From sequence record DRR378314_1618: a DNA stretch of 39,844 bases; one strand, given 5' to 3'. Positions 5,079-24,033 of the stretch are shown piece by piece. Position 1 is the stretch's first letter; each line of letters starts with the position of its first letter. A program made the position numbers and the translations under genes. The notes beneath the pieces are model-generated. The model did no database searches and had not been told where the DNA came from. It saw only the letters and a program-made list of their open reading frames with translations.

Positions 5079-5125
5079 CCGTAACAAACCCGTAACAAGC
5101 CTGAAGCACAATCTGGTGTATACCA
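5079..5125 (+). promoter_or_regulatory. Pho-box-like repeats, -10 element and PhnR/GntR operator of the HAD gene
   Basis: CCGTAAC-aaac-CCGTAAC (5079-5096), 10 nt, CACAAT (5107-5112), then TGGTGTATACCA (5114-5125). Confidence 0.7.
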
Positions 5126-5137: not shown

Positions 5138-5803
5138 ATGCTTGCGATTTTCGACCTGGATGAAACCCTGATTCGCGGAGACAGTTCACAGTTGTTCACC
5201 GAATTTCTCCGTGCCGAAGCTATTGATATCACCCCCGATTCCGAAGCCAGGGACATAGCATTCATGAGGGCCTATACCGACGGCCATCTGGATCTCCAGG
5301 ACTACATGGAATACAGCCTGGCTCCTATTCGGGGTTGGCCGCGGAACGAGGTGGAGGCGCTGATTGATCGGTTCGTTACGGAAGTGATCCCTCCCCGCGT
5401 GCTACCTACCGGCCAGGAACGGGTAGCCTGGCACAAGGCCCAGGGGCATGAGGTACTGATCATCTCCGCGACGGGAGAACACCTGGTCTCTCCCATCGCC
5501 CGACACCTTGGCATTGATGACGACATCGGCGTGCAGGTGGAATGGCAGAACGACAATCTCAAAGGGACCATCGGAACACGGCGCCCCTTCAGGGACGGCA
5601 AAGTGTCTGCCCTCAAAGAGTGGATCGCCGCCCGGTCAGCCACCCCTGAGAAGGTCTGGTTCTACTCGGATTCCCACAATGACCTCCCCCTTCTGCGCTC
5701 GGTGGACTATCCCGTTGCCGTGAACCCGGACTCGGTTCTGGAAGACTATGCCAGGCGACAGGGTTGGCGTGTGCTTATTGATAGAGCTTCGCCCTCCCCT
5801 TAA
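5138..5803 (+). CDS. HAD-IB (SerB-like) family hydrolase/phosphatase
   Basis: AIFDLDETLI, IISAT, DGKV and FYSDSHNDLPLL...AVNPD motifs; AAGGAG RBS. Confidence 0.92.
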   Translation: MLAIFDLDETLIRGDSSQLFTEFLRAEAIDITPDSEARDIAFMRAYTDGHLDLQDYMEYSLAPIRGWPRNEVEALIDRFVTEVIPPRVLPTGQERVAWHKAQGHEVLIISATGEHLVSPIARHLGIDDDIGVQVEWQNDNLKGTIGTRRPFRDGKVSALKEWIAARSATPEKVWFYSDSHNDLPLLRSVDYPVAVNPDSVLEDYARRQGWRVLIDRASPSP

Positions 5804-5819: not shown

Positions 5820-6725
5820 TTACCCCAGAACCACCAGCAGCAGACCTGCAAGAATGATCAGCACACCCAGAATCTTGGGCGCGTGCAGGGGTTCCGCAAG
5901 AAAATACCAACCCAGTGCAACGCCGATAGGTATGCTGACCTGCCGGAAGGCCACCACGTAGCTGACGTCATCCGCATAGGCCATGGCCCAAACCACCAGC
6001 GCGTAGGTTCCGAGGATCAGTACTCCCGCTGCCATGGTACTGCGCCAATTCGAGACCAGTTCCCTTAAAAGCCGTCGTTCGGTTACTTGCAGCCCCAGGC
6101 CAAGGCTAAGCCACCCTAGGGCTGACCATGCCTGGAGGATCACAAACACCAGGGCCACCTCCGCATCCAGTACGATGCCTGCCAGCAGGTCTCGCATCTG
6201 GCCGGTGGCATTGTCGTCGACGAGCGAGTATCCGGCGGTACTGGCGGCGGCCAGGAGGGCGAACAGGGTGGCAAGGTTGCGGTAGTTGGCCAGGCGAAAA
6301 TCCCGGAACCGTTGCATTGGCAGAATGATGCATCCGGCCACGATCAGAACGATACCGGCAACAGCCGCGGCGGTGATGGTTTCAGTCGTTCCCAGGAACA
6401 GGGTTCCAACCAACAGGATCAACAGGGGCGAGGATCGCGCCAGCGGATAGACCACTGACAGTTCGCCATGGCGATAGGCCGCGGCCAGGCAACTGAGATA
6501 GGTTGCCTGGAAAAAACCGGTGGCAACCACCAGCCACCAGATGCCCGAATCCAGTTCACGCAATAGTGGGCGGTAGTACACCAGCACTGGCAGGGTCAGG
6601 AGCGCGCCCCACAGGGTGCTGTACCAGAAGAACGCGCCGCTGGGGCTGACCTTCTTACCAAACAGGTTCCAACCGGCATGGGCGAGTGCGGACACCAGAA
6701 CAATAACAATCGCCGTAGAGGTCAT
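5820..6725 (-). CDS. EamA/DMT family membrane protein, phosphonate-utilisation-associated type
   Basis: ~10 hydrophobic segments; SALAHAGWN, AYRHGELSVVYPLARSSP and VSYVVAFRQVSI; last gene of the AEP transporter operon. Confidence 0.85.
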   Translation of the reverse strand: MTSTAIVIVLVSALAHAGWNLFGKKVSPSGAFFWYSTLWGALLTLPVLVYYRPLLRELDSGIWWLVVATGFFQATYLSCLAAAYRHGELSVVYPLARSSPLLILLVGTLFLGTTETITAAAVAGIVLIVAGCIILPMQRFRDFRLANYRNLATLFALLAAASTAGYSLVDDNATGQMRDLLAGIVLDAEVALVFVILQAWSALGWLSLGLGLQVTERRLLRELVSNWRSTMAAGVLILGTYALVVWAMAYADDVSYVVAFRQVSIPIGVALGWYFLAEPLHAPKILGVLIILAGLLLVVLG

Positions 6726-6744: not shown

Positions 6745-8505
6745 TCATTCCACACCCTGCCGCCACGCCCGGGTAGAACGGTCCACCCAGAAACGCAGTA
6801 CCCCCTGGATGAGTTTCGCCACTGCACAGGTTGCCGTGATCAGGATGGCCATGGCCGCCGCCGGGGCGATATCACCGGCCTCGTCCATGTTCAGCACGGC
6901 CACCGAAGCCAACTGGGAGTCGTGGCCGTAAAGGAACACAACCGCTGAGACTGTGGTCATCGCATTTACGAACAGGTAAAGGGCGACATCCAGGATGGCC
7001 GGCAGGCACAGGGGCAAGGTAACCGTGAAAAGCACCCGCCATCGGGAGGCGTTGAGCGACTCCCCCACCGCCTCGAATTCCTGATCCAGTTGCTTCAGCG
7101 CCGTGACTGCCGTGAGGTGGGAAACCGCGTAGAAGTGCGTGACAGTGCAGAGGATCAGAATGAACAGGGTGCCGTAAATGCCATTAATCGGGTTGTCCGG
7201 GTGGTTGAAGAAAAAGATATAGGACAGCCCCAGCACAAGGCCGGGAACCGCCAGCGGCAGCAGCGAGAGAAACTGGAATACCCCGGCCAGCAGCCTCGAC
7301 TGTGGTGTTCGTTCCATCAGCCAGGCGTTAAAGAAGACCAGTGCGGTTCCGAGCACCATGGTGCCCAGGGCCATCTGCAGGCTGTTGGTGTAAGCCCCCC
7401 AACCGCCGCCATCCATACGGCCGAATTGGTAGTTGTTCAGGCTAAGGTCAAGGTTGTAGGGCCAGAAGGTAACGAACGACGCATAAATCGCCATGCCGAT
7501 GATGGCGAAAATGAACACCACGGTCGGCGTCAGCATCAGCGCTCCCACGGCGTCCCGATTGCGATCCTGGCGGGGCCTGTAGGGCACGGATCTGGCCGTG
7601 AAGCTTGCGGATTGTTTGCGCTGCACATAGCGGTCGGCGATGAATGCCAGCATGGCGGGCAATAGCAACAGCACGCTGACCACCGCGCCCATCTCGAATT
7701 TCTGCTGCCCGATCACCTGCTTGTAGATATCCGTGGCCAGTACGTCGAACTGCCCGCCAATGACTTTGGGCACGCCGAAATCCGTAATCACCAGCGTGAA
7801 CACAACAAACCCGGCACTCACCAGACCATAGCGGGCGCCGGGCACCGTTACTGTCCAGAAGGTGCGCCACGGGCTGGCCTTCAAAGCGGTGGCGGCTTCG
7901 TAATGGCGCCCATCGGCGTTGTCCATCGCCGTCAGCAGAATCATCAGGGCGTGGGGAAAGGTCCAGAAGCAGGACCCCATGATAATGCCAATGGGCCCAT
8001 AGATTTCAGCGCCGAACAGCCAGCTTTTCAGTACGCCCTGGTTGCCGAACAGGTACACCAGGCTGATCGCCGGCAACAGCGACGGCGCCAGGATCGGCAA
8101 CACCAGCACGCCACGAATCCAGCCGGTGAATGGCAAACGCGTGCGGGTCAGCGCCCAGGCCGCCATGAAGGCCAGCGAAACCACAATCACGGTGCTAAGC
8201 CCGGCCACCCACAGGGAATTGAAGAACGCGGATTCGATACCGCCGGTACTCAGGTAGTAGGCAAAGTTTTCCAGCCCGACAAATTCACCGGCTTTGTTCT
8301 CGACGCTCTTTGAAAGCAGTGTGTATAGGGGCGCGAGCACCAGCAGTGTCAGAACCACGCAACCGATTACCAGAAGCAGTGCAAACACCCAACGGCCGGC
8401 AAGCCTCCGGCGTAATTCCGCCAGGTTTGGCCAGTTGCGTGTGGTCGGTGTCGAAAGCGCGGGAGAATCAATCATGGAGAACTTACCAGGGTTAGACTCA
8501 GACAT
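6745..8505 (-). CDS. aepW: 2-aminoethylphosphonate ABC transporter permease (PhnU2/AepW, two fused permease domains)
   Basis: Two EAA loops (HYEAATALKAS, EFEAVGESLNAS); SLVYLFGNQG; DFGVPKVIGG; operon context. Confidence 0.9.
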   Translation of the reverse strand: MSESNPGKFSMIDSPALSTPTTRNWPNLAELRRRLAGRWVFALLLVIGCVVLTLLVLAPLYTLLSKSVENKAGEFVGLENFAYYLSTGGIESAFFNSLWVAGLSTVIVVSLAFMAAWALTRTRLPFTGWIRGVLVLPILAPSLLPAISLVYLFGNQGVLKSWLFGAEIYGPIGIIMGSCFWTFPHALMILLTAMDNADGRHYEAATALKASPWRTFWTVTVPGARYGLVSAGFVVFTLVITDFGVPKVIGGQFDVLATDIYKQVIGQQKFEMGAVVSVLLLLPAMLAFIADRYVQRKQSASFTARSVPYRPRQDRNRDAVGALMLTPTVVFIFAIIGMAIYASFVTFWPYNLDLSLNNYQFGRMDGGGWGAYTNSLQMALGTMVLGTALVFFNAWLMERTPQSRLLAGVFQFLSLLPLAVPGLVLGLSYIFFFNHPDNPINGIYGTLFILILCTVTHFYAVSHLTAVTALKQLDQEFEAVGESLNASRWRVLFTVTLPLCLPAILDVALYLFVNAMTTVSAVVFLYGHDSQLASVAVLNMDEAGDIAPAAAMAILITATCAVAKLIQGVLRFWVDRSTRAWRQGVE

Positions 8506-8523
8506 TCGGAACTCCGCAGCCCG

Positions 8524-9594
8524 TCATGCGGCGAAGCAATGCAGGGCGTCGGAAGGCAGGTTGAGGCAGATACAGCCACCAACGCGTAGATCAAGCCGAC
8601 GCGCGGAACGTGGGTCCACATCCACCACAAGGTCCAGCTCAATGTCACTCAGGCGAATGTGGGTGCGGATGAATGCGCCCAAATAATCCAGGGCCTGGAC
8701 CTCCCCTTCCCATTCACCATCGCCGCTGGGTAAGAGGTGGACATCTTCTGGCCTGATCGCCAGTTGGATACATCCCTCGGCTGTGGGCAACGGCCGAACC
8801 AGGTCCAGTTCCCGATTCCCGACCTTTACCCGTTGTCCATTCAGTGGGGCGCTGTCGATAAAGTTCATGGCACCGATGAAGGAAGCAACAAACGCCGACG
8901 CGGGTTGCTGGTAGATGTCCAGGGGCGTTCCCACCTGTTCGATAACGCCGTTGTTCATAACCACTACCCGGTCTGCCATCGCCAGGGCTTCTTCCTGGTC
9001 GTGGGTAACCATGATGGTGGTGACACCCAGTTGCTTCTGGAGGCTGCGGATTTCGCTGCGCAGGTGGTGGCGCACTTTGGCATCCAGCGCCGACAGCGGC
9101 TCGTCGAGCAGCAACAGCCCCGGCGAAGGCGCCAGGGCGCGTGCCAGAGCCACACGTTGCTGCTGGCCACCGGACAATTGGGCAGGGTATTTGCTGGCCT
9201 GGTCTTCCAGCCCAACCAGGGCCAGTAGCTCGTCGACCCGGCGACGGACCTGAGCCTTCGGCATGCCAATACTGCGCAATCCGTAGGCGATGTTGTCGGT
9301 GACCGTCATGTTCGGAAACAAGGCATAGGACTGGAACACAATGCCAAAATCCCGGTCCCTGGGCGGCTTCAGGGAGATGTCCGTCTCGCCCTGGTGGAGT
9401 ATCCCTCCACTCTGGTGCTCAAGCCCCGCAATGATGCGAAGCAGGGTGGTCTTCCCACATCCGGATGGCCCGAGGAAACACACCAACTCACCGGGTTCGA
9501 TGGTGAGATTGATGTCCTTCAGCGCGCAAAAGTCGCCAAAGAACTTGTTCACGGCCTGGATTTCCAGACGGCTTCCCTGGGTTTTGTGGTTCAT
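8524..9594 (-). CDS. aepV: 2-aminoethylphosphonate ABC transporter ATP-binding protein (PhnT2/AepV)
   Basis: GPSGCGKT, LSGGQQQR, LLLDEPLSALD and a TOBE-like C-terminus. Confidence 0.92.
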   Translation of the reverse strand: MNHKTQGSRLEIQAVNKFFGDFCALKDINLTIEPGELVCFLGPSGCGKTTLLRIIAGLEHQSGGILHQGETDISLKPPRDRDFGIVFQSYALFPNMTVTDNIAYGLRSIGMPKAQVRRRVDELLALVGLEDQASKYPAQLSGGQQQRVALARALAPSPGLLLLDEPLSALDAKVRHHLRSEIRSLQKQLGVTTIMVTHDQEEALAMADRVVVMNNGVIEQVGTPLDIYQQPASAFVASFIGAMNFIDSAPLNGQRVKVGNRELDLVRPLPTAEGCIQLAIRPEDVHLLPSGDGEWEGEVQALDYLGAFIRTHIRLSDIELDLVVDVDPRSARRLDLRVGGCICLNLPSDALHCFAA

Positions 9595-9622
9595 GGTACC
9601 CCCTGCTCTTGAATAATCTGGT

Positions 9623-9646
9623 GCGGCGCCCGAAACCGGGCACCGC
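9623..9646 (-). other. Intercistronic stem-loop downstream of the binding-protein gene (mRNA-stabilising or attenuating)
   Basis: On the - strand GCGGTGCCCG-GTTT-CGGGCGCCGC forms a 10-bp stem with one U-G pair and no U tail. Confidence 0.45.
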
Positions 9647-9680
9647 TTTGGCTTAACGGGCTAGCGCCCGATCCGCCGAC

Positions 9681-10694
9681 TCACTTTGCTTCGGATTTGC
9701 CGTCGTAGCGACGCGCCCATTCAGTCAGGATGGCCTCACGGTTGCTGGCCGCCCAACCAAAGTCGTTGTCGATGATCAGCTCGTCCGCGTTCTCCGGGAA
9801 ATACTTCACCGGCTGTGCCACACCTGGCATGCCCACGATGGCGTAGCCTTCGTTGTACATTTCCATGGCCTTGCGGGTGATGGACCAGTCAACCAGCGTT
9901 TGTGCGGCTTCCATCTTGTCCGTTCCATCAACAATGGCAGTCGCTTCCACTTCCCAGCCCAGGCCTTCTTCAGGGAACACCAGTTCCAGGGGTGCGCCCT
10001 GTTCCTTCAGACGGGCACCACGGAAGGCGAAGGAAACGCCGATGGTGGTCTCGCCGGAAGCCGCCATCTTGCAGGGCTTGGAACCGGAGTGGGTATAACG
10101 GCTGATGTTATCGTGCAGCCCATCCATGAATTCCCAGCCCTTGTCCTCACCCATCATCTGAAGCCAAGCAGAGACATCAAGGAAGCCGGTACCGGAAGAG
10201 TTCGGGTTTGGCATAACCACATGGCCCTGGTAAACCGGCTTGGTCAGATCCTCCCAGCTGGTAGGCATTGGCAGGTTGTTGTTCTCGGCTTCGATGGTGT
10301 TCACACAGATGGCGGCCATCCACGCATCCATACCCACCCAGGAAGGCGTTTCATCGCGGTCGCGGAACTTCGGAGACAGTTTTTCCAGCCCTTCCGGCGC
10401 ATAGGGAACCAACATACCTTCGTTTTTCAGCAGCAACAGGCTGGTGCCGGCCAGTCCCCAGACCACATCCGCCTGCGAATTCTGTTTTTCCGCCAGCAGG
10501 CGCGCCGTGACGACACCGGTGGAATCGCGAACCCAGTTGATCTTGATGTCCGGATGGTCCTCGTTGAAACGCTCGGCGTACTTCTTGAGGTCCTCTGCTT
10601 CAACCGCTGAGTACACGGTCAGTTCGGTCTGGGCATTGGCGTTGATGGCAACGGCAAGTGTGGTCAGGGCAAGGGCTTTCTTGAGGTGTTTCAC
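9681..10694 (-). CDS. aepX: 2-aminoethylphosphonate ABC transporter substrate-binding protein (PhnS2/AepX)
   Basis: GTG start with AAGGAG RBS; signal peptide; WVRDSTGVVTARLLAEK, MPNPNSSGTGFLDV, YTHSGSKPCK; adjacent to phnWX. Confidence 0.93.
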   Translation of the reverse strand: MKHLKKALALTTLAVAINANAQTELTVYSAVEAEDLKKYAERFNEDHPDIKINWVRDSTGVVTARLLAEKQNSQADVVWGLAGTSLLLLKNEGMLVPYAPEGLEKLSPKFRDRDETPSWVGMDAWMAAICVNTIEAENNNLPMPTSWEDLTKPVYQGHVVMPNPNSSGTGFLDVSAWLQMMGEDKGWEFMDGLHDNISRYTHSGSKPCKMAASGETTIGVSFAFRGARLKEQGAPLELVFPEEGLGWEVEATAIVDGTDKMEAAQTLVDWSITRKAMEMYNEGYAIVGMPGVAQPVKYFPENADELIIDNDFGWAASNREAILTEWARRYDGKSEAK

Positions 10695-10736: not shown

Positions 10737-10808
10737 TGGTCTATACCAGTTTCGATCACCACTACCTTAGGGCTATTTGATTGCAAAGACGTGACAGCCA
10801 TGTGACGT
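10737..10808 (-). promoter_or_regulatory. Pho box, -10 element and PhnR operator of the transporter operon
   Basis: - strand: ACGTCAC-atgg-CTGTCAC-gtct-TTGCAAT (10808-10780), 10 nt, TAAGGT (10769-10764), TGGTATAGACCA (10748-10737). Confidence 0.8.
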
Positions 10809-10823: not shown

Positions 10824-11651
10824 TTACGGGCGCTCACCCGCTTGCAAGCGGCGACCGATATCGGCGAGCACGTTTGGCAAATCCGCAATGGAGTCAATCA
10901 CATAGTGAGCGGCTGACTGCGCCATAACACGGTGCCCGCGGGCGAGGATGTCCGCTCGCTCTGCGTCGTCGAGGGCGGAAAGCTGCTCTTCACTGAGCCC
11001 GACCGCATTCCCGGATGCCACCACCGCCACCGTCCACATGCCGGCGTTCAGGCCTTCTTCAATTCCCGTGGTGGTGTCGTCAACTTTTACGCAGCCCTGA
11101 ACGGCGGTAATACCCAGTTCGAGCGCATTCTTCAGGCTCATATGGGGTGCGGGCCTTCCCTGGGGCACTTCCGTTGCCACCACAACGCTTTCCGGTTCGA
11201 AGCCCTGGGTAGCCAACCCCGGCAGCATCACCTTCACCATTTCGCGGCTGTACCCGGTATTCACACCAAGCCTGATGCCCTGTTCACGAAGTTGCTCCTG
11301 CAGAGCCAGGGCGCCGGGAATCAACTTTGTGCGTTCAGCGATGGCGGCTGTTTGCAGCGGCAGGAAGGCGTCGTAGAGTCGATCAATATCAGGGCTTTCA
11401 GGCTCACTACCGAAGGTACTGCGCCACTGGTTACGGATTCGTGGCATGGCCAGCAGGCGGCGGATGTGTTCGCGTTTTTCGGTGCCCATGGGCTCACGGG
11501 CTTCCGCTTCAGACAGGTCGATACCCTCTGCTTCAAACAGCTTCAGAAACGCCTGGATGGGCGCCAGCGATCCAAAGTCCACGCAGGTGCCGGCCAGGTC
11601 CATAATCACCGCCTGGAGCGGCCCGGTGTATCGACGGGTGTAGGTATGCAT
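10824..11651 (-). CDS. phnX: Phosphonoacetaldehyde hydrolase (phosphonatase)
   Basis: DLAGTCVDFGS, PMGTEKREH (Schiff-base Lys), GRPAPHM and KVDDTTTGIEEGLNAGMWTV. Confidence 0.96.
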   Translation of the reverse strand: MHTYTRRYTGPLQAVIMDLAGTCVDFGSLAPIQAFLKLFEAEGIDLSEAEAREPMGTEKREHIRRLLAMPRIRNQWRSTFGSEPESPDIDRLYDAFLPLQTAAIAERTKLIPGALALQEQLREQGIRLGVNTGYSREMVKVMLPGLATQGFEPESVVVATEVPQGRPAPHMSLKNALELGITAVQGCVKVDDTTTGIEEGLNAGMWTVAVVASGNAVGLSEEQLSALDDAERADILARGHRVMAQSAAHYVIDSIADLPNVLADIGRRLQAGERP

Positions 11652-11670
11652 AACATTCTCCCTTCAGGAT

Positions 11671-12822
11671 TCAGACGGTTTCGAGGTTGTCCGGTGCGAC
11701 GGCGGGCGCCGGGACGGGTATCGACAGGCCGAGCTCCTGGCAGGCCTCGGCAATCGCGGTAATAACGGCGTCAATCTGCTCATCGTGGAGCTGGCCAATG
11801 CAGCCCACCCGAAAACTGTCCGCCACGGTGAGTTTGCCGGGGTAGATGAGAAAGCCACGAGCCTTGATCGAGTCGTAGAAGTGACGGAATTCAAACGCCG
11901 GGCTGTTCGGCGACAGGAAGGTGGTGATGATCGGCGACAGCCACTCATCCGCCAGCAAGGTCCGGAAGCCGATCTCACGAAGGCCAGCCACCAGGCGGTC
12001 TCGATTGCGGCTGTAACGGGCCAGACGACCGCTCACTCCACCCTCGGCTTCGTGTTCACGCATGGCCTGGAGAAAGGCAGCCACCACATGGGTGGGCGGG
12101 GTGTAGCGCCACTGCCCGGTTTTCTCCATGTATTGCCACTGATCATGGAGATCCAGGGACAGGCTGTGGCACTGGCCGGCTGAAGCCGACAACAAATTCC
12201 GTTCGACAATGGCGAACCCGAACCCCGGAACACCCTCGAAGCACTTGTTGGCGGAGGACACGAGGGCTGCACAGGGCAGCTCGGCCACATTGACCGGCAA
12301 GGCTCCAAAGGCGCTCATGCTGTCGATAATCAGGCGCTTGCCGGCCTCGCGGCACACCTCGGCAATGTCTTTGATCGGATTGAGAATGCCGGAGCTGGTT
12401 TCACAATGAACCACCACCACCTGTTCGATCTCGGGATGCTCTTTCAAGGCAACGGCAACTTCGTCGCCGCGCGGCGGGTGGTAATCCCCCTTATCAATGG
12501 CCAGATACGGGCGCCCCAACGTGTCGAGGATCTTGCCGATGCGCTGACCATAGGCACCATTCATCAGTACCAGAGTCGTACTGGCTGGTGGAATCACCGT
12601 GCCAAGCGTGGCTTCCACCGCGAAGGTGCCACTGCCCTGCATGGGCACGCAAACGTGGCTTTCCCTACCGCCAGCCACGTCGAGCAGCCGCTCACACATT
12701 TCGGCCGTTAGGCCATTGAAGTCGCCGTCCCAGGAGCCCCAGTCGTGCAACATGGCCTGTTTCACGGAGAGGCTGGTGGTCAATGGACCGGGAGTGAGCA
12801 AATAGGGATCTTTTGGGGTCAT
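11671..12822 (-). CDS. phnW: 2-aminoethylphosphonate--pyruvate transaminase
   Basis: [70 protein letters not shown] at 12822 has GGAG RBS (ORF call starts at 12834). Confidence 0.96.
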
Positions 12823-12839
12823 GAAGGTCTCCATCGGGA

Positions 12840-14072
12840 TTAGCCAGTGCGTTTCCGGGCGCGCGCCTCGGCGCAGCGGAAGATGAAATCGGGACTGCAG
12901 GAATCAATGGCTCCGAAGCGATCCAGGCGGAACGGTTCGGAGGGCACAAAGGGGCGCTGGTTGGTGGCCCGCTCAGCGATAAACCGCCCTATACCACCGG
13001 ACATGCCGATGCCCGCTCCGGAGCAACCGGTGGCGGCGATGAAACCCTCGACACCAGGCATAGAGTCCAACAGGGGAAAACCATCGGGGGTGTAGCTGGA
13101 CACATTACTGACGTAGTGAGCCAGCTTTAACTCGTCCAGCACAGGGAGCTGGGAGCGAAGAGCCTCATAGCCGCTTTCAAGAGCAAGCTCACCCGTCGGA
13201 TCGGTGTCGAAGCGAAAGCCCTGAAGGTTATCCGGTAAGGTTTTTGGATGAGCCACGACCGATTGCGGATCTCGCAACCCGAATAACAAGCCACCCACTT
13301 CCGGGCGCGCATAGGCGCCGCTATCGGGCAAAATGGTTATCGGGCCGTTGGTGGGCACCGACGGGTGCGGCGCTGATATCCAGTAATGACTGCGAACTGG
13401 CGCCATGCCAAGGTGGATATTCGCCTGCAGCGCCAGCGCAGTGCTCCAGGGGCCGGCCGCGTCAATAACGGTTCCGGCGGAGATCATTTCGCCGTCGGCG
13501 AGGCGCACGCCAGTCACCCTCGAGCCTTGCTGCAGGAGCTCGCTGACCGTTCGTTTGAGAAGAAACCGGGTGCCGTTTCGCCTGGCTTCGGCCGCATAGG
13601 CCAAGCAGAGCGTGTAGGGATCAATGTAACCATCATCCGGCAACCACAAGGCGGAGGTCTCGGACGTCAGCTCAAGCCAGGGAGCCAGCCGCATGCCTTC
13701 ACCCGCGCTGATCTGCTCCGCGGACACACCGGCATCCGCTGCCCGTTGCGCCATCTGCTCGATCTGCTGCCGCCCCTCCGGTTTGGCTGACACATTCAGG
13801 CTGCCCACCCTTCGCAGGGGCAACGGTTGGCCAACGCTGTTTTCCAGCTCGTCGATGGCACGAAACGTTTCCATCACCATGGCCGTCAGCACCCGGTGGG
13901 GGCGAACCCGGGTCAGCAATGCCGCTGCGTGGCTGGTGGTTTGTTCACCCAGCCCGTGGCGCTCAACAACGACAACACCAAGGCCAGGCGTCCGGCTCAG
14001 GTATCGGGCTATGGCGCATCCAAGGATGCCGCCGCCAATGACGACGATATCCGGATGATGGGTTGTGGGCAT
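12840..14072 (-). CDS. FAD-dependent amine oxidoreductase (DAO family, resembling the sarcosine/dimethylglycine dehydrogenase FAD domain); candidate N-methyl-AEP oxidase
   Basis: [31 protein letters not shown] and [10 protein letters not shown]; first gene of the phnWX operon. Confidence 0.85.
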
Positions 14073-14090: not shown

Positions 14091-14146
14091 TGGTATAGAC
14101 CAGTCTGGCGAGAAACTGTGACGGTTTTATGAATACCCGATGACAG
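14091..14146 (-). promoter_or_regulatory. Pho box, -10 element and PhnR operator of the oxidoreductase-phnW-phnX operon
   Basis: - strand: CTGTCAT-cggg-TATTCAT-aaaa-CCGTCAC (14146-14118), 10 nt, CAGACT (14107-14102); operator TGGTATAGACCA on + strand at 14091-14102. Confidence 0.8.
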
Positions 14147-14169: not shown

Positions 14170-14898
14170 TCAGTTGACCTCGACCTGAATGCTCAGGGCG
14201 TCGTGCAGCCAGAATTCTTCATCAAACTCCACGAAGCACCCTTCGGCGTCGTGACTGCAACGGGTTACGTAGAGTCCAGCCGTACCTGCCGTCACGCCGA
14301 TCGCATTTGCCTGCGGATCAACCAGAGCCGTCGGGTACATTTCAATGCGCTTACCCTGCAATTCCACCCCGTATTGCTCACGCAGCAGTTTCCAAAGGGA
14401 GCGATTGAAGTCATAGGTTTCAATGCCTGGCAGGCGTTTCGGGTTCAGGTAGATGTTCTCGACCAACACCGGTCGACCATCGATCTGCCGGCGCCTGCGG
14501 AGCCATACAATCGGGTCGCCGACGGCCAGGCCGGTTTTCACCGCGAGCCAGGCATTGATTTCAGTGGGTGTGACATCCAGGGTTTCGGTCGCCGGAACGC
14601 GCCCCTGGGAGGTGACATTATCGGAGAAACTGTAGTCCTGGGTGGGTTTGTAGATCAGCCGTGGCGGCGAAACAAACCAGCCTCGCCGGTTGGAACGGTA
14701 TATCCTGCCCTCGGCTTCCAGCTGGGCCAGCGCCAGCCGGGTGGTCACACGCGTGGTGCCGTGTTCATCCGCCAGGATCCGCTCTGAGGGCAGACGGGTA
14801 TTGGGCGTTAACGACCCCTCCTCGATCTGGATCGCCAGTTGATCCCGCACTCTCATATACAGAGGCGCGGTGCCTTCCCCGACCAACCGCTCTTGCAT
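14170..14898 (-). CDS. phnR: GntR/HutC-subfamily (UTRA) phosphonate utilisation regulator
   Basis: ATG at 14898 with GAGGAG RBS; RLPSERILAD...TTRVTTRLALAQLEAEGRIYRSNRRGWFVSPPRLIY; UTRA domain ending EFDEEFWLHDA. Confidence 0.88.
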   Translation of the reverse strand: MQERLVGEGTAPLYMRVRDQLAIQIEEGSLTPNTRLPSERILADEHGTTRVTTRLALAQLEAEGRIYRSNRRGWFVSPPRLIYKPTQDYSFSDNVTSQGRVPATETLDVTPTEINAWLAVKTGLAVGDPIVWLRRRRQIDGRPVLVENIYLNPKRLPGIETYDFNRSLWKLLREQYGVELQGKRIEMYPTALVDPQANAIGVTAGTAGLYVTRCSHDAEGCFVEFDEEFWLHDALSIQVEVN

Positions 14899-14929
14899 AC
14901 TCTCGCTCCTCAGTTCAACAAAACCATCC

Positions 14930-14963
14930 ACAATAGGACCGCAAGGTGACGCCAGTATGACAA
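14930..14963 (-). promoter_or_regulatory. Pho box and -10 element of phnR (no operator palindrome)
   Basis: - strand: TTGTCAT-actg-GCGTCAC (14963-14946), 10 nt, TATTGT (14935-14930). Confidence 0.72.
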
Positions 14964-15017
14964 AGCACCGGCCTGTTTCGTACCGGGCGCTCGTGCTGTC
15001 CCGCCCCCGCTCCAATG

Positions 15018-15053
15018 AAAAAACCCAGGCCCGGTAAAACGAGGGCCTGGGTT
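15018..15053 (-). terminator. Rho-independent terminator of the metallophosphoesterase gene
   Basis: - strand: AACCCAGGCCC-loop-GGGCCTGGG followed by TTTTTT. Confidence 0.8.
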
Positions 15054-15085
15054 CTGACGGCTACTCTGCCGTGAAAACGGCGATG

Positions 15086-17515
15086 TCAGTACAACAGGTT
15101 TAGGGAGAGGTTGTCGAAGTAGACGTCGTTATCGCTGCCTGCTTTGCGCTCGCCACCCATGTAAACCCTGATGCTGCGAACACCGACAGGCAGGAATCCA
15201 TCCAGCCCCTGCGTCTCCCAACTTTTAACGGAAGAACTGGTTCGTGTTGCCGATTTGCCCCACTCGATCGGCTGATCGCTGCCATCCAGCAGTTCTACCC
15301 TGAGTTCGGGCACATCGTCGGCGGACCAGGTGGTCATACGGGCTGAAAGCTCAATGTAAACCTTACCGGCATCGATATCCGCCCCATAACCGGAGACATC
15401 CACAGTTTGATAGGCCGTGTCGGTACAACAGTCTCCAGGCTGACCCTGCCCAAAACCACGCCCCGCGAAGTAAAAGTCCCCCTCATCGGCGGCGAAACCG
15501 CCGTTGTTGGTCGCAGTGATCGCGCTGATGAGGCCACCTGTAAGCGTCCACCCAGTAAGATCGCCCGCTTCGGCATCACCGTTGGCCAGCAGATTGGATG
15601 TCCGGGTACCGGCCAAACTGAAGCTGTAACTGTTGCTCCACGTCGACCAGTTCATCTGCTCATCGCGGACTCTGGCACGCCAGTAGTAAGTGGTACCGGG
15701 TTTGAAGCTCAGCGTGTGGCGCGGCTGGCCGCCGTATGCATCGTAGGCCGAGGTATGGGTATTCTGTGAGTCAAAGCGCTTGTTCCAGCGGTAATAGTCA
15801 TCCCCGCCCGGGCGCACGGTCTGGCTGTCCAGCAGCGCGGACAGATCAAGCCGGAAGATGTCTGCCCCTTGCTGGGTATCGACCGCTTCATAACCGAGGT
15901 ATTCATCGCCACCTACGCGAGATGCCTCGTCATAGAAAAAGTTTTGCCGCCGGGTTTCGTTGCCCCAGATGTCGAACACCGTGCCCTCGAAGGTTTCGCT
16001 CTCGGAAACCTGCCACTGAACTTCGTGGACCTGCTCGGGCGCACCGACGTTGATGCCCAGCTCGATCTCCGTCGCGGACAGCTCGCCAGTACCTGCGGTA
16101 GCCTGCGGCAGGTTGTCGTTCGTAGCCGCAGCGAACGTTACCTCGTCCACCACCTCGAAGTCCGTGTCTCCGTCGTAACCGCCTTTCTTGCGCTGCAGCG
16201 TCACCGAAGCCTCGGGGCCGAACCGATAGGTCAGCACGCTGTAGCCGAACTCGCTCCGGCTAACCTCAAAGGTGTCGTAGTCGCTGATCTGATTGTTCTG
16301 GTGGTCAGCACTGTCCAGCGGTTCAATATACCCGGAGGCGCTGGCCGCATTGAGCCACAAGTGCGGTGTATTCAGGGACTGCCCTCGTGAGTAGGCATGT
16401 GTGTGACCAAAGAAGTGACCTGTCACGGCCCCGGTGTTTTCACTGTACTGTTCCAGCTCTGACACCATTTCGCAGGAGCCAATACTCTCCCCAACGTTCC
16501 ACATTTCTGACAGACAGCCGTGGTGGAACATCCCCATCACAAACGTCTTCTGCTGTATCTCGGCATCCCTCAGGGTTTCTCGCAACCACTGGCGCTGCAC
16601 CGCCAGCGTCTCACGGTTAAAGCTGCCATGGGCACCCGATATCGGATAGCTGTCCAGGCCGACCAGGCGAAGGTCCAGATAGTCCAGAAAATACCAGTGG
16701 TCTTCGTAACCAACAGAACCATTGTCAGGTGGTGACATGTAGGTTCGATAGAGTTCCAGCTCGGCGTTGGAGTAATAATCATGGTTGCCAGGTACGGTGA
16801 CCAGAGGCACGTAGGGTGTGATATCGGCCATCCGCCCGAACAGCTGCTCTCGCCAGTGCGACCGTTCGCCACCGGTCTGTACCACGTCTCCCGAGATGGT
16901 GATGGCGGCAATATTCTCGGCACAGGTCTCGGGCTGGGAGCCGTCGCATTCCTCCATCATGAAACCGGCGGAGACCACGTTGTTCAGCACGACCTCATAG
17001 ATTTCCCGGTCCAGTTGGGTGTCGCTCAGGGCAATGAATCGGGCTTCGGTGACATCATCGCTGTCATTGGGCCAGGTCTTGAAGGCGAACGCCTGGGTTA
17101 CTCGCTGGTTGTCCTCGACGTCCTTAGTGGTTACGTAGTACTCGTAAAGGGTATTGGACACCAGGCCCGACAGGACCGAGCGGTAAACCAGCCCATCCGC
17201 GGAGTGAATCTCTGCTTCAACTTTCTTGAATTCCTCACCCGAACCGAATGCACGGGCCCATACTTCCGGCTCGGTGTTCTCGGTTTCAAACATCACCGTC
17301 ATGGTGTCGCTTCCGGGTGCCTGCAAATAAGGCCGAACGATGAAGTCCGGACTTTCAGCGGCTTGCGGCGGTGGCACGGCAATCGGATCAGGATTGCCGG
17401 GCACTTCCGCGCCCGGACCAGGATCAGGATCAGACTTTGAATCAGAACCGTTGCATCCTGCTAACAACAGCGCAGAAGCGCTCAAAGCCAGCAAGGTTCG
17501 GTAAGAGATGAACAT
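15086..17515 (-). CDS. Lipoprotein metallophosphoesterase (purple acid phosphatase/calcineurin-like), with FN3-like and C-terminal beta-sandwich (CBM/FBA-like) domains, 809 aa
   Basis: ATG at 17515 with AAGGAG RBS; lipobox LLLAG-C; Pro-rich linker; PYLQAPG N-domain; LSDTQ, GDVV, GNHD, MFHH and GHTH motifs; TYYWRARVRD; NLLANGDAEAGDLTGW...YFDNLSL. Confidence 0.85.
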   Translation of the reverse strand: MFISYRTLLALSASALLLAGCNGSDSKSDPDPGPGAEVPGNPDPIAVPPPQAAESPDFIVRPYLQAPGSDTMTVMFETENTEPEVWARAFGSGEEFKKVEAEIHSADGLVYRSVLSGLVSNTLYEYYVTTKDVEDNQRVTQAFAFKTWPNDSDDVTEARFIALSDTQLDREIYEVVLNNVVSAGFMMEECDGSQPETCAENIAAITISGDVVQTGGERSHWREQLFGRMADITPYVPLVTVPGNHDYYSNAELELYRTYMSPPDNGSVGYEDHWYFLDYLDLRLVGLDSYPISGAHGSFNRETLAVQRQWLRETLRDAEIQQKTFVMGMFHHGCLSEMWNVGESIGSCEMVSELEQYSENTGAVTGHFFGHTHAYSRGQSLNTPHLWLNAASASGYIEPLDSADHQNNQISDYDTFEVSRSEFGYSVLTYRFGPEASVTLQRKKGGYDGDTDFEVVDEVTFAAATNDNLPQATAGTGELSATEIELGINVGAPEQVHEVQWQVSESETFEGTVFDIWGNETRRQNFFYDEASRVGGDEYLGYEAVDTQQGADIFRLDLSALLDSQTVRPGGDDYYRWNKRFDSQNTHTSAYDAYGGQPRHTLSFKPGTTYYWRARVRDEQMNWSTWSNSYSFSLAGTRTSNLLANGDAEAGDLTGWTLTGGLISAITATNNGGFAADEGDFYFAGRGFGQGQPGDCCTDTAYQTVDVSGYGADIDAGKVYIELSARMTTWSADDVPELRVELLDGSDQPIEWGKSATRTSSSVKSWETQGLDGFLPVGVRSIRVYMGGERKAGSDNDVYFDNLSLNLLY

Positions 17516-17530
17516 CGGACTCTCCTTTGT

Positions 17531-17602
17531 TGGTATATACCAGAATTGGTACATACCAATTTAAGGGGATTAGATGTCATTTCGGTGATCTTTATGTTGC
17601 GG
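17531..17602 (-). promoter_or_regulatory. Tandem PhnR-type operators, -10 element and degenerate Pho-like repeats of the metallophosphoesterase gene
   Basis: TGGTATATACCA (17531-17542) and TGGTACATACCA (17547-17558); - strand TAAATT (17563-17558), preceded at 10 nt by CCGCAAC-ataa-AGATCAC-cgaa-ATGACAT (17602-17574). Confidence 0.75.
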
Positions 17603-17733
17603 GGCTCTTAAAAATGTATCGGATTTACCGAGGAACCGCCTCCGCCACCTCAGGCGGTCTGCGCCGAGCTTGTGGAGAGCTGGTAATGTCGGGATAGGGC
17701 GTGGCGAATGCTTGTCCGGCGCAGAAGCCGTAA

Positions 17734-18222
17734 TCACTCGAGGTTGACGAGTATCTCCATCGGTTTCTCATCGCAGTTGTGCCCGGGCCCACCACGGTCC
17801 ACCACCAGGAATTCTCCCTCGCGGTCCAGAACCGAATGGACCGCATGCCAGGTACCCGCCCGGTAGTTAATGCCCTGGTGCCCGTCGGTGATGAACGCCC
17901 GCACGCTCTGCGGGTCAATCGCATCTCCGGGTGGTGCCACCACAACCAGGAACCGCTCGCCACGCAGGGGGATGAACGCCTGGCTGCCAAGAGGGTGACG
18001 TTCCAGGCATTCAACCGCCAGAGGCACCTGTACCGGCTGGCTCACGAAGATGCTGATCAAAGGCCTGGCGCCCTCTCCCAGGAGCTCAACGCTGGCTAGG
18101 TCGTGGTGGCGCTGTGTTCGCCCGCCATTGATGGGGAATGAGCTGGCACGCCGACTATCGATCACGTCGCCGAAGGGCGTGAAGGCTTCCAGAGTGAGCG
18201 GCTGGGCTGTCAGGTTCAGCAT
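17734..18222 (-). CDS. allA: Ureidoglycolate lyase
   Basis: PLTLEAFTPFGDVI, INGGRTQRHHDLA, ERHPLGSQAFIP, QGINYRAGTWH, FLVVDRGGPGHNC. Confidence 0.94.
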   Translation of the reverse strand: MLNLTAQPLTLEAFTPFGDVIDSRRASSFPINGGRTQRHHDLASVELLGEGARPLISIFVSQPVQVPLAVECLERHPLGSQAFIPLRGERFLVVVAPPGDAIDPQSVRAFITDGHQGINYRAGTWHAVHSVLDREGEFLVVDRGGPGHNCDEKPMEILVNLE

Positions 18223-18243
18223 CGTTGTCGTCCTTAAACGGGT

Positions 18244-19092
18244 TCAGCGGCCACCGAAGCCGTTGAGTTTCATGTGGCGGTTAACATCTTTGTACAGCAG
18301 GTAGCGGAACCGGCCCGGGCCACCGGCGTAACAGGCCTGGGGGCAGAAGGCCCGTAGCCACATGTAGTCGCCGGCCTCTACTTCAACCCAGTCCTTGTTG
18401 AGCAGGTACACGGCCTTACCTTCCAGTACGTACAGGCCGTGCTCCATCACGTGGGTTTCCGCGAACGGAATCACGCCGCCCGGCTGAAACGTCACGATGT
18501 TCACGTGCATGTCGTGCCGCATGTCGCTCTGGTCCACGAAGCGGGTGGTGGCCCAGCAGCCGTTGGTGTCGGGCATTTCAATGGGCTCTACGTCGGCCTC
18601 GTTGGTGACGAAGGGTTCGGGATGATCAACGCCGTCAACGGCCTCATAGGCTTTGCGGATCCAGTGGAAACGCACCGTGGAGGCGGCGTCATTGCGCACT
18701 TGCCAGTCACAGCCCGGCGGAATGAACGCGTAGCCGCCCGGTGTCATCGTGTGGGTCTGCCCCGCCAGGGTCAGGGTCAGCTCACCCTCCACCACAAACA
18801 ACACGGCTTCCGCGCCCGGATCCACTTCCGGCCTGTCGCTGCCGCCGCCCGGTGATACTTCCATGATGTACTGGGAGAAGGTTTCGGCAAACCCGGACAG
18901 AGGGCGCGACAGTACCCACAGGCGTGTTTTGTCCCAGAACGGCAGATAACTGGCCACGATGTCCCGCATCACGCCCTTTGGAATCACCGCATAGGCTTCG
19001 GTGAATACCGCGCGGTCGGTCAGCAACTGTGTCTGCGGTGGGTGCCCGCCCGTTGGCGCGTAGTAGAAAGGGGGCGTTTGTCGATTGGTCAT
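18244..19092 (-). CDS. allE: (S)-ureidoglycine aminohydrolase, bifunctional allantoicase/UGlyAH-type bicupin
   Basis: YYAPTGGHPPQTQLLTDRAVFTEAYAVIP; ETHVMEHGLYVLEGK; RYLLYKDVNRH. Confidence 0.92.
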   Translation of the reverse strand: MTNRQTPPFYYAPTGGHPPQTQLLTDRAVFTEAYAVIPKGVMRDIVASYLPFWDKTRLWVLSRPLSGFAETFSQYIMEVSPGGGSDRPEVDPGAEAVLFVVEGELTLTLAGQTHTMTPGGYAFIPPGCDWQVRNDAASTVRFHWIRKAYEAVDGVDHPEPFVTNEADVEPIEMPDTNGCWATTRFVDQSDMRHDMHVNIVTFQPGGVIPFAETHVMEHGLYVLEGKAVYLLNKDWVEVEAGDYMWLRAFCPQACYAGGPGRFRYLLYKDVNRHMKLNGFGGR

Positions 19093-20030
19093 CAGAGTGC
19101 TCCGGAATCAAAAGGGTGGTGCTTTACCCAGTGCTGGGCGATGTCCACACGCCGTGTCACCCAGACACGGTCGTGGGCTTCAATATGGTCGAGGAAGCGC
19201 TGAAGGCCCCGGAAGCGACCTGGCCGGCCGATCAGCCGGCAATGCAGCCCGACAGAGAGCATCTTCGGCGTGTCTTTCCCCTCTTCGTACAGCACATCGA
19301 AGGCGTCCCGCAAATACTCGAAGAAATGGTCTCCGGTGTTGAATCCCTGCGGAGTGGCAAACCGCATGTCATTAGTGTCCAGCGTGTACGGAACGATCAG
19401 GTGGTTGTGCAGCTCGCCGCTGGAATCGCTCTGGCGGGTCCAGAATGGCAGGTCGTCGCCGTAGTAATCGCTGTCGTACAGGAAGCTGCCCTCGTCCAAT
19501 AGCAACCGCCGGGTGTTGGGGCTGTCCCGGCCGGTGTACCAGCCCATGGGCTTCTCACCATACAGTTCCCGGAAGATGTCGATGGCACGCTGCATGTGTT
19601 CGCGCTCGATCTCCTCGGGAATGTTCTGGTAGTGAATCCAGCGCCAGCCGTGGCAGGCCACTTCGTGGTTCAGCTCCCGGAACGCCTGCGCCACCTCGGG
19701 GTTGCGCTGCAGGGCCATGGCAACGCCAAACACGGTCAACGGCAGGTCGCGGCGCTCAAACTCGTTCAGCAGGCGCCACACTCCCGCCCGGGAGCCGTAT
19801 TCATAGATAGACTCCATGCTCATGTGCCGGTCGGCAAAGGGCTCGGCACCCACGATCTCCGACAAAAATCGCTCGGAGTGGCTGTCCCCGTGCAACACGC
19901 AGTTCTCGCCACCCTCTTCATAGTTGAGCACGAACTGGACGGCCACCCGCGCCTGGCCCGGCCAACGCACCTCCGGTAATGCACGGCCGTAGCCGATCAG
20001 GTCACGGGGGTATTCCGGCGTCATACTCAT
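19092..20030 (-). CDS. puuE: Allantoinase PuuE (polysaccharide deacetylase fold)
   Basis: YPRDLIGYG, QFVLNYEEGGE, ESIYEYGSRAG, ACHGWRW, GWYTGR, PYTLDTNDMRF, GLHCRLIGRPGR. Confidence 0.96.
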   Translation of the reverse strand: MSMTPEYPRDLIGYGRALPEVRWPGQARVAVQFVLNYEEGGENCVLHGDSHSERFLSEIVGAEPFADRHMSMESIYEYGSRAGVWRLLNEFERRDLPLTVFGVAMALQRNPEVAQAFRELNHEVACHGWRWIHYQNIPEEIEREHMQRAIDIFRELYGEKPMGWYTGRDSPNTRRLLLDEGSFLYDSDYYGDDLPFWTRQSDSSGELHNHLIVPYTLDTNDMRFATPQGFNTGDHFFEYLRDAFDVLYEEGKDTPKMLSVGLHCRLIGRPGRFRGLQRFLDHIEAHDRVWVTRRVDIAQHWVKHHPFDSGAL

Positions 20031-20098
20031 AAATACGTGTCCTCAATCGACTTCGAGGGTTTGATTGTGTGGCTACTTATCACCACGACGTCACATTA

Positions 20099-20108
20099 TT
20101 GTATACGA
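20099..20108. promoter_or_regulatory. GntR (FadR-type) operator TTGTATACGA upstream of puuE
   Basis: Near-palindrome that recurs at 20260 and 24869. Confidence 0.6.
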
Positions 20109-20258
20109 AAAAACCGATTTCTGTGACAACCTGCCGATACTCATCCCGCCAAGTCCGCACCCTAGCGCCTTGAAAACCAGGCCAAGCTATCGATTCAGGC
20201 TCTATTATTGCCATTTTTCTGCAACAAAAACTTGCAGGATACGGGGGGCACGTTCTAA

Positions 20259-20270
20259 ATTGTGTACAAT
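20259..20270. promoter_or_regulatory. GntR (FadR-type) operator ATTGTGTACAAT upstream of the racemase
   Basis: Near-perfect palindrome matching the 20099 and 24869 copies. Confidence 0.62.
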
Positions 20271-20312
20271 TACTTATTGTTTTGTTCACCACATATTTCA
20301 ATCGGGGAAACC

Positions 20313-21062
20313 ATGCACATCCGAATTATTAACCCCAACACCACCCGCGCCATGACCGACACCATCGGCGCGGCGGCGGAAAACGTGGCGGCGCCGGGTA
20401 CACGCATCACCGCTACCCAGCCCGCCAGCGGCCCGGTGTCCATCGAAAGCCATTTCGATGAAGCCGTCAGCGCCGTGGGCGTTGCCGAGGAGGTGTTGGC
20501 CGGGGAACGGAGCGAGGACACCGTTGATTCCTACGTCATCGCCTGCTTTGGCGATCCGGGCCTGCTGGCCGCACGGGAACTGACCCGGGCTCCGGTCATC
20601 GGTATCGCGGAAGCCGCGTTCCATGTCGCCACCATGATCAGCACCCGCTTTTCGATTGTGACCACCCTGGGCCGCACCGGCATCATCGCGGAACACCTGC
20701 TGGAGAACTACGGGTTCAGCCACCATTGCCGGCGCGTACGCGCGGCGGAAATCCCGGTGCTGGATCTGGAAGAGAATGCGGACGTGGCGGTGCAGCGCCT
20801 GGTGGAGGAATGCCGAAGGGCCAAGGAGGAGGACAACATTGGCGCCATCGTGCTGGGCTGCGGAGGCATGGCAGACCTGACCGACTATCTCACCGAAGCG
20901 GTTGGCCTTCCCATCATTGAGGGCGTTACCGCGGCCGTCAAACTGTCTGAGGCCCTGGTGGGATTAAACCTCGGCACCAGCAAGCACGGCGACTTGGCGT
21001 TTCCGCGCCCGAAGCCGTTTACCGGTCGTTTTGAAAGCTTCTCGAACCTGAATATCCAATAA
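20313..21062 (+). CDS. hpxA: Allantoin racemase (hydantoin/Asp-Glu racemase family)
   Basis: MHIRIINPNTT, GPVSIESHFDE, IACFGDPG and VLGCGGM (two catalytic Cys), TSKHGDLA; allantoin cluster context. Confidence 0.88.
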   Translation: MHIRIINPNTTRAMTDTIGAAAENVAAPGTRITATQPASGPVSIESHFDEAVSAVGVAEEVLAGERSEDTVDSYVIACFGDPGLLAARELTRAPVIGIAEAAFHVATMISTRFSIVTTLGRTGIIAEHLLENYGFSHHCRRVRAAEIPVLDLEENADVAVQRLVEECRRAKEEDNIGAIVLGCGGMADLTDYLTEAVGLPIIEGVTAAVKLSEALVGLNLGTSKHGDLAFPRPKPFTGRFESFSNLNIQ

Positions 21063-24022: not shown

Positions 24023-24033
24023 TCCGGGCTCCT

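Follow-up and report, generated by a model that had tools for sequence, protein, structure and literature searches.

How are aminophosphonates released from the conjugates in which they occur? Much of the natural 2-aminoethylphosphonate (AEP) is bound to lipids or glycans, while the established pathways begin at the free acid. Phosphonolipids and phosphonoglycans are named as AEP-containing conjugates in the available text of one source (PMC8316502), and a 2017 paper, in the portion accessible, could only postulate alkaline-phosphatase-like enzymes for the cleavage of phosphonate esters (PMC5649143). The question is raised here by a gene at 15086-17515 on the minus strand of DRR378314_1618, a stretch of 39,844 nucleotides that was analyzed over its whole length and is called the window. 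The gene encodes an exported metallophosphoesterase lipoprotein, hereafter MPE, and its closest homologues and closest loci belong to Marinobacter, the genus to which the window itself is assigned. As read from the sequence, MPE is a lipid-anchored, exported binuclear metallohydrolase, and the operator known from the AEP catabolic cluster also precedes its gene. The tie between MPE and AEP catabolism, both regulatory and genomic, is strongly supported. We put it at about an even chance that MPE is a hydrolase of the phosphodiesterase type by which aminophosphonates are freed from their esters; AEP or N-methyl-AEP would be released from phosphonolipids or phosphonoglycans, as the initial annotation had proposed.

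The regulatory tie rests on a palindrome, TGGTATNTACCA, which is perfect at only two positions of the window, 17531 and 17547, with starts 16 bp apart and both directly upstream of MPE. Copies with one mismatch precede the gene of the FAD-dependent amine oxidoreductase (DAO) (14091), phnS2 (10737), and the gene of a HAD-type hydrolase (5114), and near-perfect palindromes are absent elsewhere in the 39.8 kb. When up to two mismatches are allowed, the window contains 17 matches against 4.6 expected, and none of 100 shuffles reaches 17. Among the 12 Marinobacter MPE loci compared (the window, L001, L002, and L101-L109), the proximal operator is located at -22 to -29 in every one, and a second operator is located at -40 to -45 in nine. 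A third palindrome lies near -120 in eight of these loci, five with and three without a second regulator gene, GntR2, which is considered below. In four genomes (L002, L105, L108, and L109), MPE lies away from the phn genes yet retains the operator, and all four share a syntenic alternative site, YebC-GATase-MPE-...-TetR-FMO-patatin. In the L002 genome, the phn cluster is situated on a different contig and the same palindrome precedes phnW, phnS2, and the HAD gene; simultaneously, the genome encodes a single PhnR-type regulator at E<=1e-20. The most likely binder of the MPE operators in the window, as judged from sequence, is PhnR.

MPE travels with carbon–phosphorus (C–P) catabolic genes in three lineages, Marinobacter, Paraglaciecola, and Flavobacteriaceae. 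Within Marinobacter (a sample of 151 genomes), MPE is present in 10 and PhnX in 15, and PhnX occurs in all 10 MPE carriers compared with 5 of the 141 other genomes (Fisher p = 2.4e-12, with shared ancestry ignored). Within Flavobacteriaceae (251 genomes), a short form of MPE is present in 22 and PbfA in 16, and PbfA occurs in 14 of the 22 carriers compared with 2 of the 229 non-carriers (Fisher p = 1.2e-15, shared ancestry again being ignored); the two genes are directly adjacent in 12 of the 14 genomes that have both. Furthermore, the homologue in Paraglaciecola hydrolytica (31% identity) possesses a perfect operator at -27 and is surrounded by phnX, a TIGR03329 aminophosphonate oxidoreductase gene, two TonB-dependent receptor genes, a HAD-IB gene, phnW, a DUF5690 gene, and phnR. 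The phnW of this cluster is preceded by its own operator. The genome contains only one PhnR-type regulator, and the operator is still kept. The claim of the initial annotation that MPE stands under phosphonate operators is borne out by the palindrome kept in all 12 Marinobacter copies and in Paraglaciecola, and the linkage of homologues to phosphonate genes, on which it had made its proposal depend, extends beyond Marinobacter.

Homologues were examined as the best 80 of 162 loci confirmed in species-representative genomes, with phosphonate genes sought within 10 kb. The MPE family is small, with 110 matches at E<=1e-30 among 1.84 billion cluster representatives. A tblastn search with the Marinobacter Phn proteins located phn genes in just 2 of the 80 loci, and a clustering of the neighboring proteins then exposed the loci in which MPE accompanies pbfA and SusCD. 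In a tree of 83 sequences (FastTree, midpoint-rooted, seven fragmentary rows excluded), phosphonate-linked MPEs are situated on both sides of the deepest split.

In Flavobacteriaceae, the short form of MPE comprises 506 aa and lacks the Fbs1-like domain described below. In eight loci, derived from Leeuwenhoekiella, Flagellimonas, Allomuricauda, Mangrovimonas, and a metagenome-assembled genome, it directly follows pbfA with a gap of 60-130 bp. The gene order is SusC-SusD-NPP-like phosphodiesterase-...-PbfA-MPE-alkaline-phosphatase-superfamily protein, in which the NPP-like (nucleotide pyrophosphatase/phosphodiesterase-like) enzyme carries PA14 and chitobiase-C domains. The representative PbfA scores 682 bits against NF049939 (cutoff 525), and the other PbfAs are 71-91% identical to it; two doubtful candidates, in L046 (27% identity to PbfA) and L053 (43%), were excluded from the count. 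The three Leeuwenhoekiella loci each encode, in addition, an FAD oxidoreductase of the TIGR03364 family and a hydrolase resembling PhnX; in the one Flagellimonas genome and the Mangrovimonas genome searched, the PhnX-like hydrolase is encoded just upstream of SusC. By its gene content, the SusCD-pbfA-MPE locus looks like a dedicated utilization locus for conjugated aminophosphonates, and no paper describing it was found in the literature searched. In Maribacter, an expressed SusC/D pair adjoins an alkaline phosphatase, an FAD oxidoreductase, and a phosphonatase-like hydrolase (PMC11345257, as far as its available text goes), and this neighborhood looks like the same locus type. Among the side genes of the Flavobacteriaceae loci, the alkaline-phosphatase-superfamily protein of 347 aa and the Kriegella aldehyde dehydrogenase could be assigned to neither PhnA nor PhnY, and PDB sequence searches with them were uninformative. 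A Pfam tally of 123 neighbor proteins from 14 short-form loci without pbfA yielded no recurrent phosphonate family.

The start codon of MPE is likely the ATG at 17515, located after AAGGAG within a listed open reading frame (ORF) of 15086..17554 on the minus strand, which yields a protein of 809 aa beginning MFISYRTLLALSASALLLAGC. Its lipobox, LLAGC, satisfies the L-[AS]-[GA]-C criterion and is also read in the translations of the Marinobacter and Photobacterium homologues; signal peptides or type IX secretion system (T9SS) tails are found on MPE homologues. An AlphaFold2 (AF2) model built from 49 homologues has a mean predicted local distance difference test (pLDDT) value of 88.4 and a predicted template modeling (pTM) score of 0.81, and it is disordered only at the signal peptide and the tether rich in G/S/D/P (residues 20-38). 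Both Pfam domains exceed their cutoffs, Pur_ac_phosph_N (PF16656) with 32.6 bits against 30 over residues 63-147 and Metallophos (PF00149) with 42.7 bits against 21.5 over residues 196-375. In the model, the core forms an alpha/beta sandwich that superposes on the purple acid phosphatase (PAP) 1ute with Z 26 and a root-mean-square deviation (rmsd) of 2.6 over 265 residues. Kidney bean PAP is matched by residues 52-621 (Z 26), and the mammalian PAPs by residues 154-465 (Z 26). The next fold matches are SMPDL3A/B (Z 21), PhoD (Z 19.6), acid sphingomyelinase (ASMase; Z 19.5), and GpdQ (Z 19).

The core contains all five catalytic motifs, SDTQ, GDVV, GNHD, HH, and GHTH, which are kept in 89-90 of 90 homologues, and the metal-ligand blocks D165, D210, N244/H245, H331, and H371/H373 are invariant across 49 sequences. 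In block I, which has the form SDxQ, 89 of 90 homologues carry Gln where many PF00149 members have His; besides this Gln167, the residues His367, His385, and Arg377 are invariant. The position of the PAP Tyr in GDxxY is occupied by Q213 in MPE and by Tyr in 4 of 90 homologues, and alignment with the lupin PPD1 places it in a non-conserved column of the MPE family. Judged from these motifs, MPE is PAP-like in fold yet not a true PAP, because the Tyr of GDxxY is absent and block I is SDxQ with an invariant Gln. No NCBIfam family matches MPE, and in the ESM Atlas it falls only into clusters named 'metallophosphoesterase family protein'. As far as the sequences tell, the family is uncharacterized and is recognizable by the signature SDxQ / GDxV / GNH[DE] / HHPxxSExW / GHTHxYSRG.

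Behind the core, weak profile matches to the FN3 domains of cytokine receptors (E 2e-4 to 3e-2) mark the middle part as FN3-like, and an Ig_Rha78A_N match at residues 603-634 lies below the Pfam cutoff. The C-terminal beta-sandwich matches the sugar-binding domains of Fbs1/Fbs2/FBG3 (8zuh, 3wso, 2e31, and 2e32) with Z 17 and an rmsd of 2.5-2.7 over 159-161 residues at 19-23% identity. A PDB search with the single MPE sequence returned as its sole match 34 residues in this domain (8xmz, residues 643-676). The architecture that the initial annotation had read from the letters is thus recovered at every point: the 809-aa lipoprotein, the PAP-like N-domain, the calcineurin-like core with its motifs and without the GDxxY tyrosine, the FN3-like segment, the beta-sandwich resembling carbohydrate-binding modules, the two operators 16 bp apart, and the gene's own terminator. 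The structure prediction and the fold search per domain that it had envisaged gave a PAP-type core and an Fbs1-like C-domain. The terminator, found by folding, is a stem of 13 pairs followed by U6 (-37.9 kcal/mol, z -3.98); a simple promoter and terminator scan overlooked it because its loop has 10 nt. No sigma-70 promoter could be placed with confidence upstream of MPE.

The fold superfamily contains phosphodiesterases, including sphingomyelinase, SMPDL3A, GpdQ, and PPD1, and the proposed chemistry is therefore plausible. Two of these relatives also lend themselves to another explanation, in which MPE is a nucleotide pyrophosphatase/phosphodiesterase that acts on cytidine monophosphate (CMP)-AEP, the activated donor, or on nucleotide diesters from lysed cells, yielding AEP and a nucleotide. 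Foldseek ranks PPD1, a diphosphonucleotide phosphatase/phosphodiesterase of lupin, first among the matches of MPE (E 4e-21), and SMPDL3A, which has a structure with CMP bound, matches with Z 21. Such nucleotides are, however, intracellular and probably scarce outside cells, and larger glycoconjugates are what both the SusCD/TonB receptors and the domain resembling glycan-binding ones suggest; we regard the nucleotide substrate as quite improbable.

For the release of aminophosphonates from esters, the following mechanism is proposed. PhnR would repress MPE via the two palindromes and is presumed to be released by free AEP, so that the AEP transporter, the FAD oxidoreductase, PhnW, PhnX, and MPE would all be expressed jointly. 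The lipid-anchored enzyme, borne on a long linker, would most likely hydrolyze monoesters of aminophosphonates at their P–O bond. As substrates we consider esters in which a sugar, glycerol, or ceramide is linked to AEP, N-methyl-AEP, or hydroxy-AEP, and the Fbs1-like C-domain would hold those that bear glycans. The freed aminophosphonate would enter by PhnS2T2U2 and then be cleaved by PhnW/PhnX, while the FAD enzyme would process N-methyl-AEP in the manner of PbfB/C/D, as given in the available text of PMC10590968. What we infer here is that PhnR is the binder, what acts as inducer, which cellular face the lipoprotein occupies, and what MPE hydrolyzes. The TonB/SusCD receptors in other lineages suggest substrates that exceed porin size.

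Several observations weigh against this proposal. The closest fold matches (Z 26) are purple acid phosphatases, which are phosphomonoesterases. None of the searched phosphonate genes lies within 10 kb in 70 of the 80 homologue loci, 8 of the 22 MPE carriers in Flavobacteriaceae lack PbfA at the threshold used, and the co-occurrence statistics ignore shared ancestry; in addition, absence from draft genomes does not equal true absence. The glycan-binding-like C-domain is absent from the Flavobacteriaceae forms, and if the lipoprotein faces the periplasm, polymers would be out of its reach. The Photobacterium orthologues (40% identity) have no operator, though the phn cluster of the same genome bears the palindrome, and these MPE copies adjoin ttr and cus genes, which we take for genes of tetrathionate reduction and copper efflux. 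The Thalassolituus orthologue (65% identity) is preceded solely by a Pho-box-like site, in keeping with general scavenging of phosphorus. Finally, in the five relatives with GntR2, this protein could be the true regulator of MPE. A Photobacterium histidine kinase with a Phosphonate-bd domain, encoded next to the MPE copy, was rejected as phosphonate evidence, as it forms a set with neighboring reductase subunits of the 4Fe-4S and NrfD types; presumably the set is a TtrRS/TtrBCA-like tetrathionate system.

The main alternative to which such observations lead is a general extracellular phosphate mono- or diesterase that acts on nucleic acids, phospholipid head groups, or phosphoglycans and releases phosphate or small phosphate esters, having entered the phosphonate regulon only through shared nutrient scavenging from the same biomass. 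The nearest folds, PAPs and PhoD, agree with it, as do the many homologue loci devoid of phosphonate genes and the two alkaline-phosphatase-superfamily enzymes in the Flavobacteriaceae MPE loci. Pho-box-like sites before the Thalassolituus and Paraglaciecola genes agree with it as well. The repeats CTGTMA-N5-CTGTMA, which we take to be the Pho-box consensus, are located just upstream of MPE in L009 (9882-9898) and L003 (9881-9897) and are the sole matches in each 22-kb locus; in Paraglaciecola, the Pho-box-like site together with the PhnR operator suggests dual phosphate and phosphonate control. However, no Pho-box-like site was found before the Marinobacter MPE gene, which carries the operator of the AEP cluster instead, and Marinobacter MPE is confined to genomes that bear PhnX (10 of 10). 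In Flavobacteriaceae, MPE lies directly between pbfA and the next gene, and phosphate release gives no evident cause for tracking the C–P catabolic genes so closely. A general phosphoesterase is for these reasons unlikely, though it is the rival to be taken most seriously.

A different doubt concerns the regulator. GntR2 is a second PhnR-like HutC protein, 33-35% identical to PhnR, and it is encoded divergently upstream of MPE in L001, L101, L105, L108 (11378-12100), and L109; the window has a 7.3-kb allantoin/hydantoin island at the place where L001 has GntR2. It is conceivable that GntR2 or a similar HutC-type regulator with a different ligand binds the operators, that the tie to AEP is a leftover of gene order, and that the substrate is not a phosphonate. 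The best family match of GntR2 is still PhnR (194 bits), the L002 and Paraglaciecola genomes keep the operator with a single PhnR-type regulator, and the pbfA linkage in Flavobacteriaceae is independent of any operator; we regard this explanation as highly improbable. Among the same relatives, L105 carries a tandem, shorter MPE paralogue (10010-12079), a 643-aa ORF with 64% identity over residues 20-634 and an upstream palindrome of its own, TGGTAGGTACCA. In L108, a 571-aa ORF without a Pfam or NCBIfam match (12060-13775) follows GntR2 at the phn-unlinked site. The MPE gene of L109 (G106:C10) contains an in-frame TGA near its 5' end, a possible pseudogene or sequencing error, and retains its operators.

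The neighboring genes of the window (Table 1) comprise the catabolic, transport, and regulatory genes of the AEP cluster. The true start of PhnR is probably about 40 codons inside the longest ORF, because homologues align from residue 39-46. The HAD-IB hydrolase is likely a further member of the regulon, to judge from the palindrome before its gene. It recurs beside phn genes in Paraglaciecola (L009 17327-18001, 34% identity, next to phnW), and an orthologue with an operator is also found in another Marinobacter phn cluster (L087 3083-3751). Upstream of MPE, the island at 17616-24953 occupies the position of GntR2 (9066-9903) in the 96%-identical relative L001 and encodes the allantoinase PuuE, a cupin, a ureidoglycolate lyase, a hydantoin racemase, two NCS1 permeases, and a GntR/FCD regulator. 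Conversely, the gene of the FAD oxidoreductase (window 12910-13975) is missing from L001.

Table 1. Features of the MPE gene, its operators, and its surroundings; positions refer to the window except in the last row.
Feature	Position	Strand	Basis
MPE coding sequence, 809 aa, stop codon included	15086..17515	-	ORF list, translation, Pfam, AF2 model
Ribosome-binding site AAGGAG	17522..17527	-	read from sequence
Predicted signal peptide, lipobox L-A-G-C, Cys21, Asn at +2	17453..17515	-	read from translation
Low-complexity G/S/D/P tether, residues 22-52	17360..17452	-	pLDDT <50 at residues 20-38
PAP-type N-terminal beta domain, residues 53-150	17066..17359	-	PF16656; alignment with kidney bean PAP
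Metallophosphoesterase catalytic domain, residues 154-465	16121..17056	-	PF00149; motifs; fold match to mammalian PAPs
FN3-like middle part with partly helical insert, residues 466-636	15608..16120	-	weak FN3 profile matches; AF2 secondary structure
C-terminal beta-sandwich, Fbs1/FBA glycan-binding-like, residues 637-809	15089..15607	-	structure match
Intrinsic terminator downstream of MPE	15018..15055	-	folding
Proximal operator TGGTATATACCA, -27 from ATG	17531..17542	.	motif scan, conservation
Distal operator TGGTATGTACCA, -43 from ATG	17547..17558	.	motif scan, conservation
Operator before FAD oxidoreductase (DAO) and phnW	14091..14102	.	motif scan
Operator before phnS2	10737..10748	.	motif scan
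Operator before HAD-IB gene	5114..5125	.	motif scan
PhnR-like GntR/HutC regulator, longest ORF	14170..15015	-	TIGR03337 251 bits, below cutoff 296.75
FAD-dependent amine oxidoreductase (DAO), Pbf-type candidate	12840..14072	-	profile matches
PhnW, AEP-pyruvate transaminase	11671..12834	-	546.7 bits, cutoff 296
PhnX, phosphonoacetaldehyde hydrolase	10824..11651	-	335 bits, cutoff 220
PhnS2-PhnT2-PhnU2, putative AEP ABC transporter, three genes	6745..10694	-	NCBIfam
EamA membrane protein	5820..6725	-	best NCBIfam match phosphonate-associated TIGR03340, 198 bits, below cutoff 288
HAD-IB hydrolase (PF12710)	5138..5803	+	Pfam; best NCBIfam matches histidinol-phosphatase models, below cutoff
Three allantoin-pathway genes, upstream of MPE	17734-20030	-	
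Eight pbfA-MPE loci of Flavobacteriaceae: L037, L038, L048, L044, L045, L067, L070, L033	2228-15840 (L037)		

In the literature searched, no metallophosphoesterase in AEP clusters and no enzyme freeing AEP from conjugates was found; this covers the available portions of PMC8154272, PMC10590968, and PMC12366243, whose supplementary cluster tables may list one, and of PMC10574752, PMC8316502, PMC9381506, PMC13576164, PMC5649143, and PMC11345257. Against this background, MPE is a concrete, clonable candidate that comes with sets for comparison, namely the PhnR-controlled, the Pho-controlled, and the forms embedded in a utilization locus (PUL). If the proposal is true, MPE adds the first step of aminophosphonate mineralization, can serve as a marker by which the use of phosphonate conjugates is recognized, and defines a subfamily of metallophosphoesterases whose motif I has an unusual Gln. 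The wider idea, that the SDxQ family is the missing marine phosphonate esterase and was recruited independently into gammaproteobacterial PhnR regulons and the Flavobacteriaceae SusCD locus, is held tentatively and falls somewhat short of an even chance.

Compared with known enzymes, MPE shares the N-terminal beta domain and the binuclear core with the PAPs of kidney bean (4dhl/1kbp), pig and human (1ute/2bq8), the wheat phytase (6gja), and the lupin PPD1 (3zk4), with Z 26 over 265-364 residues and profile E values down to 2.6e-13, and it also shares the GD, GNH[DE], H, and GHxH ligand motifs. However, the identity is 15-19%, the Tyr of GDxxY is missing, motif I is SDxQ, and MPE is lipid-anchored and has additional domains of the FN3-like and Fbs1-like types, while the PAPs are mainly monoesterases. 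ASMase and SMPDL3A/3B (5i81, 5ebb, and 5kar) possess the same core and, it appears, a comparable subdomain packed on it, with alignments that extend to residue 578. They cut the phosphodiester between a lipid or nucleoside and its head group, which is the reaction type proposed for MPE. Their Z of 19-21 is lower than that to the PAPs, and MPE differs from them in the lack of a saposin domain, an identity of 14-20%, and a different motif I ligand.

GpdQ of Enterobacter aerogenes (2dxl and 3d03) is, like MPE, a bacterial metallophosphoesterase (profile E 3e-8, Z 19), and it hydrolyzes phosphonate monoesters as well as diesters. In contrast to MPE, GpdQ is a cytoplasmic chain of 274 residues that consists of the catalytic core and a small C-terminal part, without the PAP N-domain, the FN3-like domain, or the glycan-binding-like domain. 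The Rhizobium and Burkholderia phosphonate monoester hydrolases (PMH/PEH) catalyze the very reaction proposed for MPE. PMH/PEH or PhoD have been proposed, in the available text of PMC5649143, to cut phosphonate esters off marine polysaccharides, and a title cited there (Jonas 2008) lists PMH/PEH as alkaline-phosphatase-superfamily members whose nucleophile is formylglycine. MPE gave no sulfatase/alkaline-phosphatase-superfamily or formylglycine-type match in Pfam and NCBIfam, and its metallophosphoesterase fold is unrelated to PMH/PEH; no PMH/PEH inside an AEP catabolic cluster is reported in the available portions of the literature searched. In terms of genomic setting, MPE resembles PbfA, PbfB/C/D, and PbfF as a recurrent extra gene of AEP clusters. 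According to the accessible parts of PMC8154272, PMC10590968, and PMC12366243, these enzymes recur in phnWX/phnWYA clusters and funnel relatives of AEP into the core pathway. The Pbf enzymes are cytoplasmic and act on free aminophosphonates, whereas MPE is an exported protein whose action, on the conjugates, would come one step before theirs.

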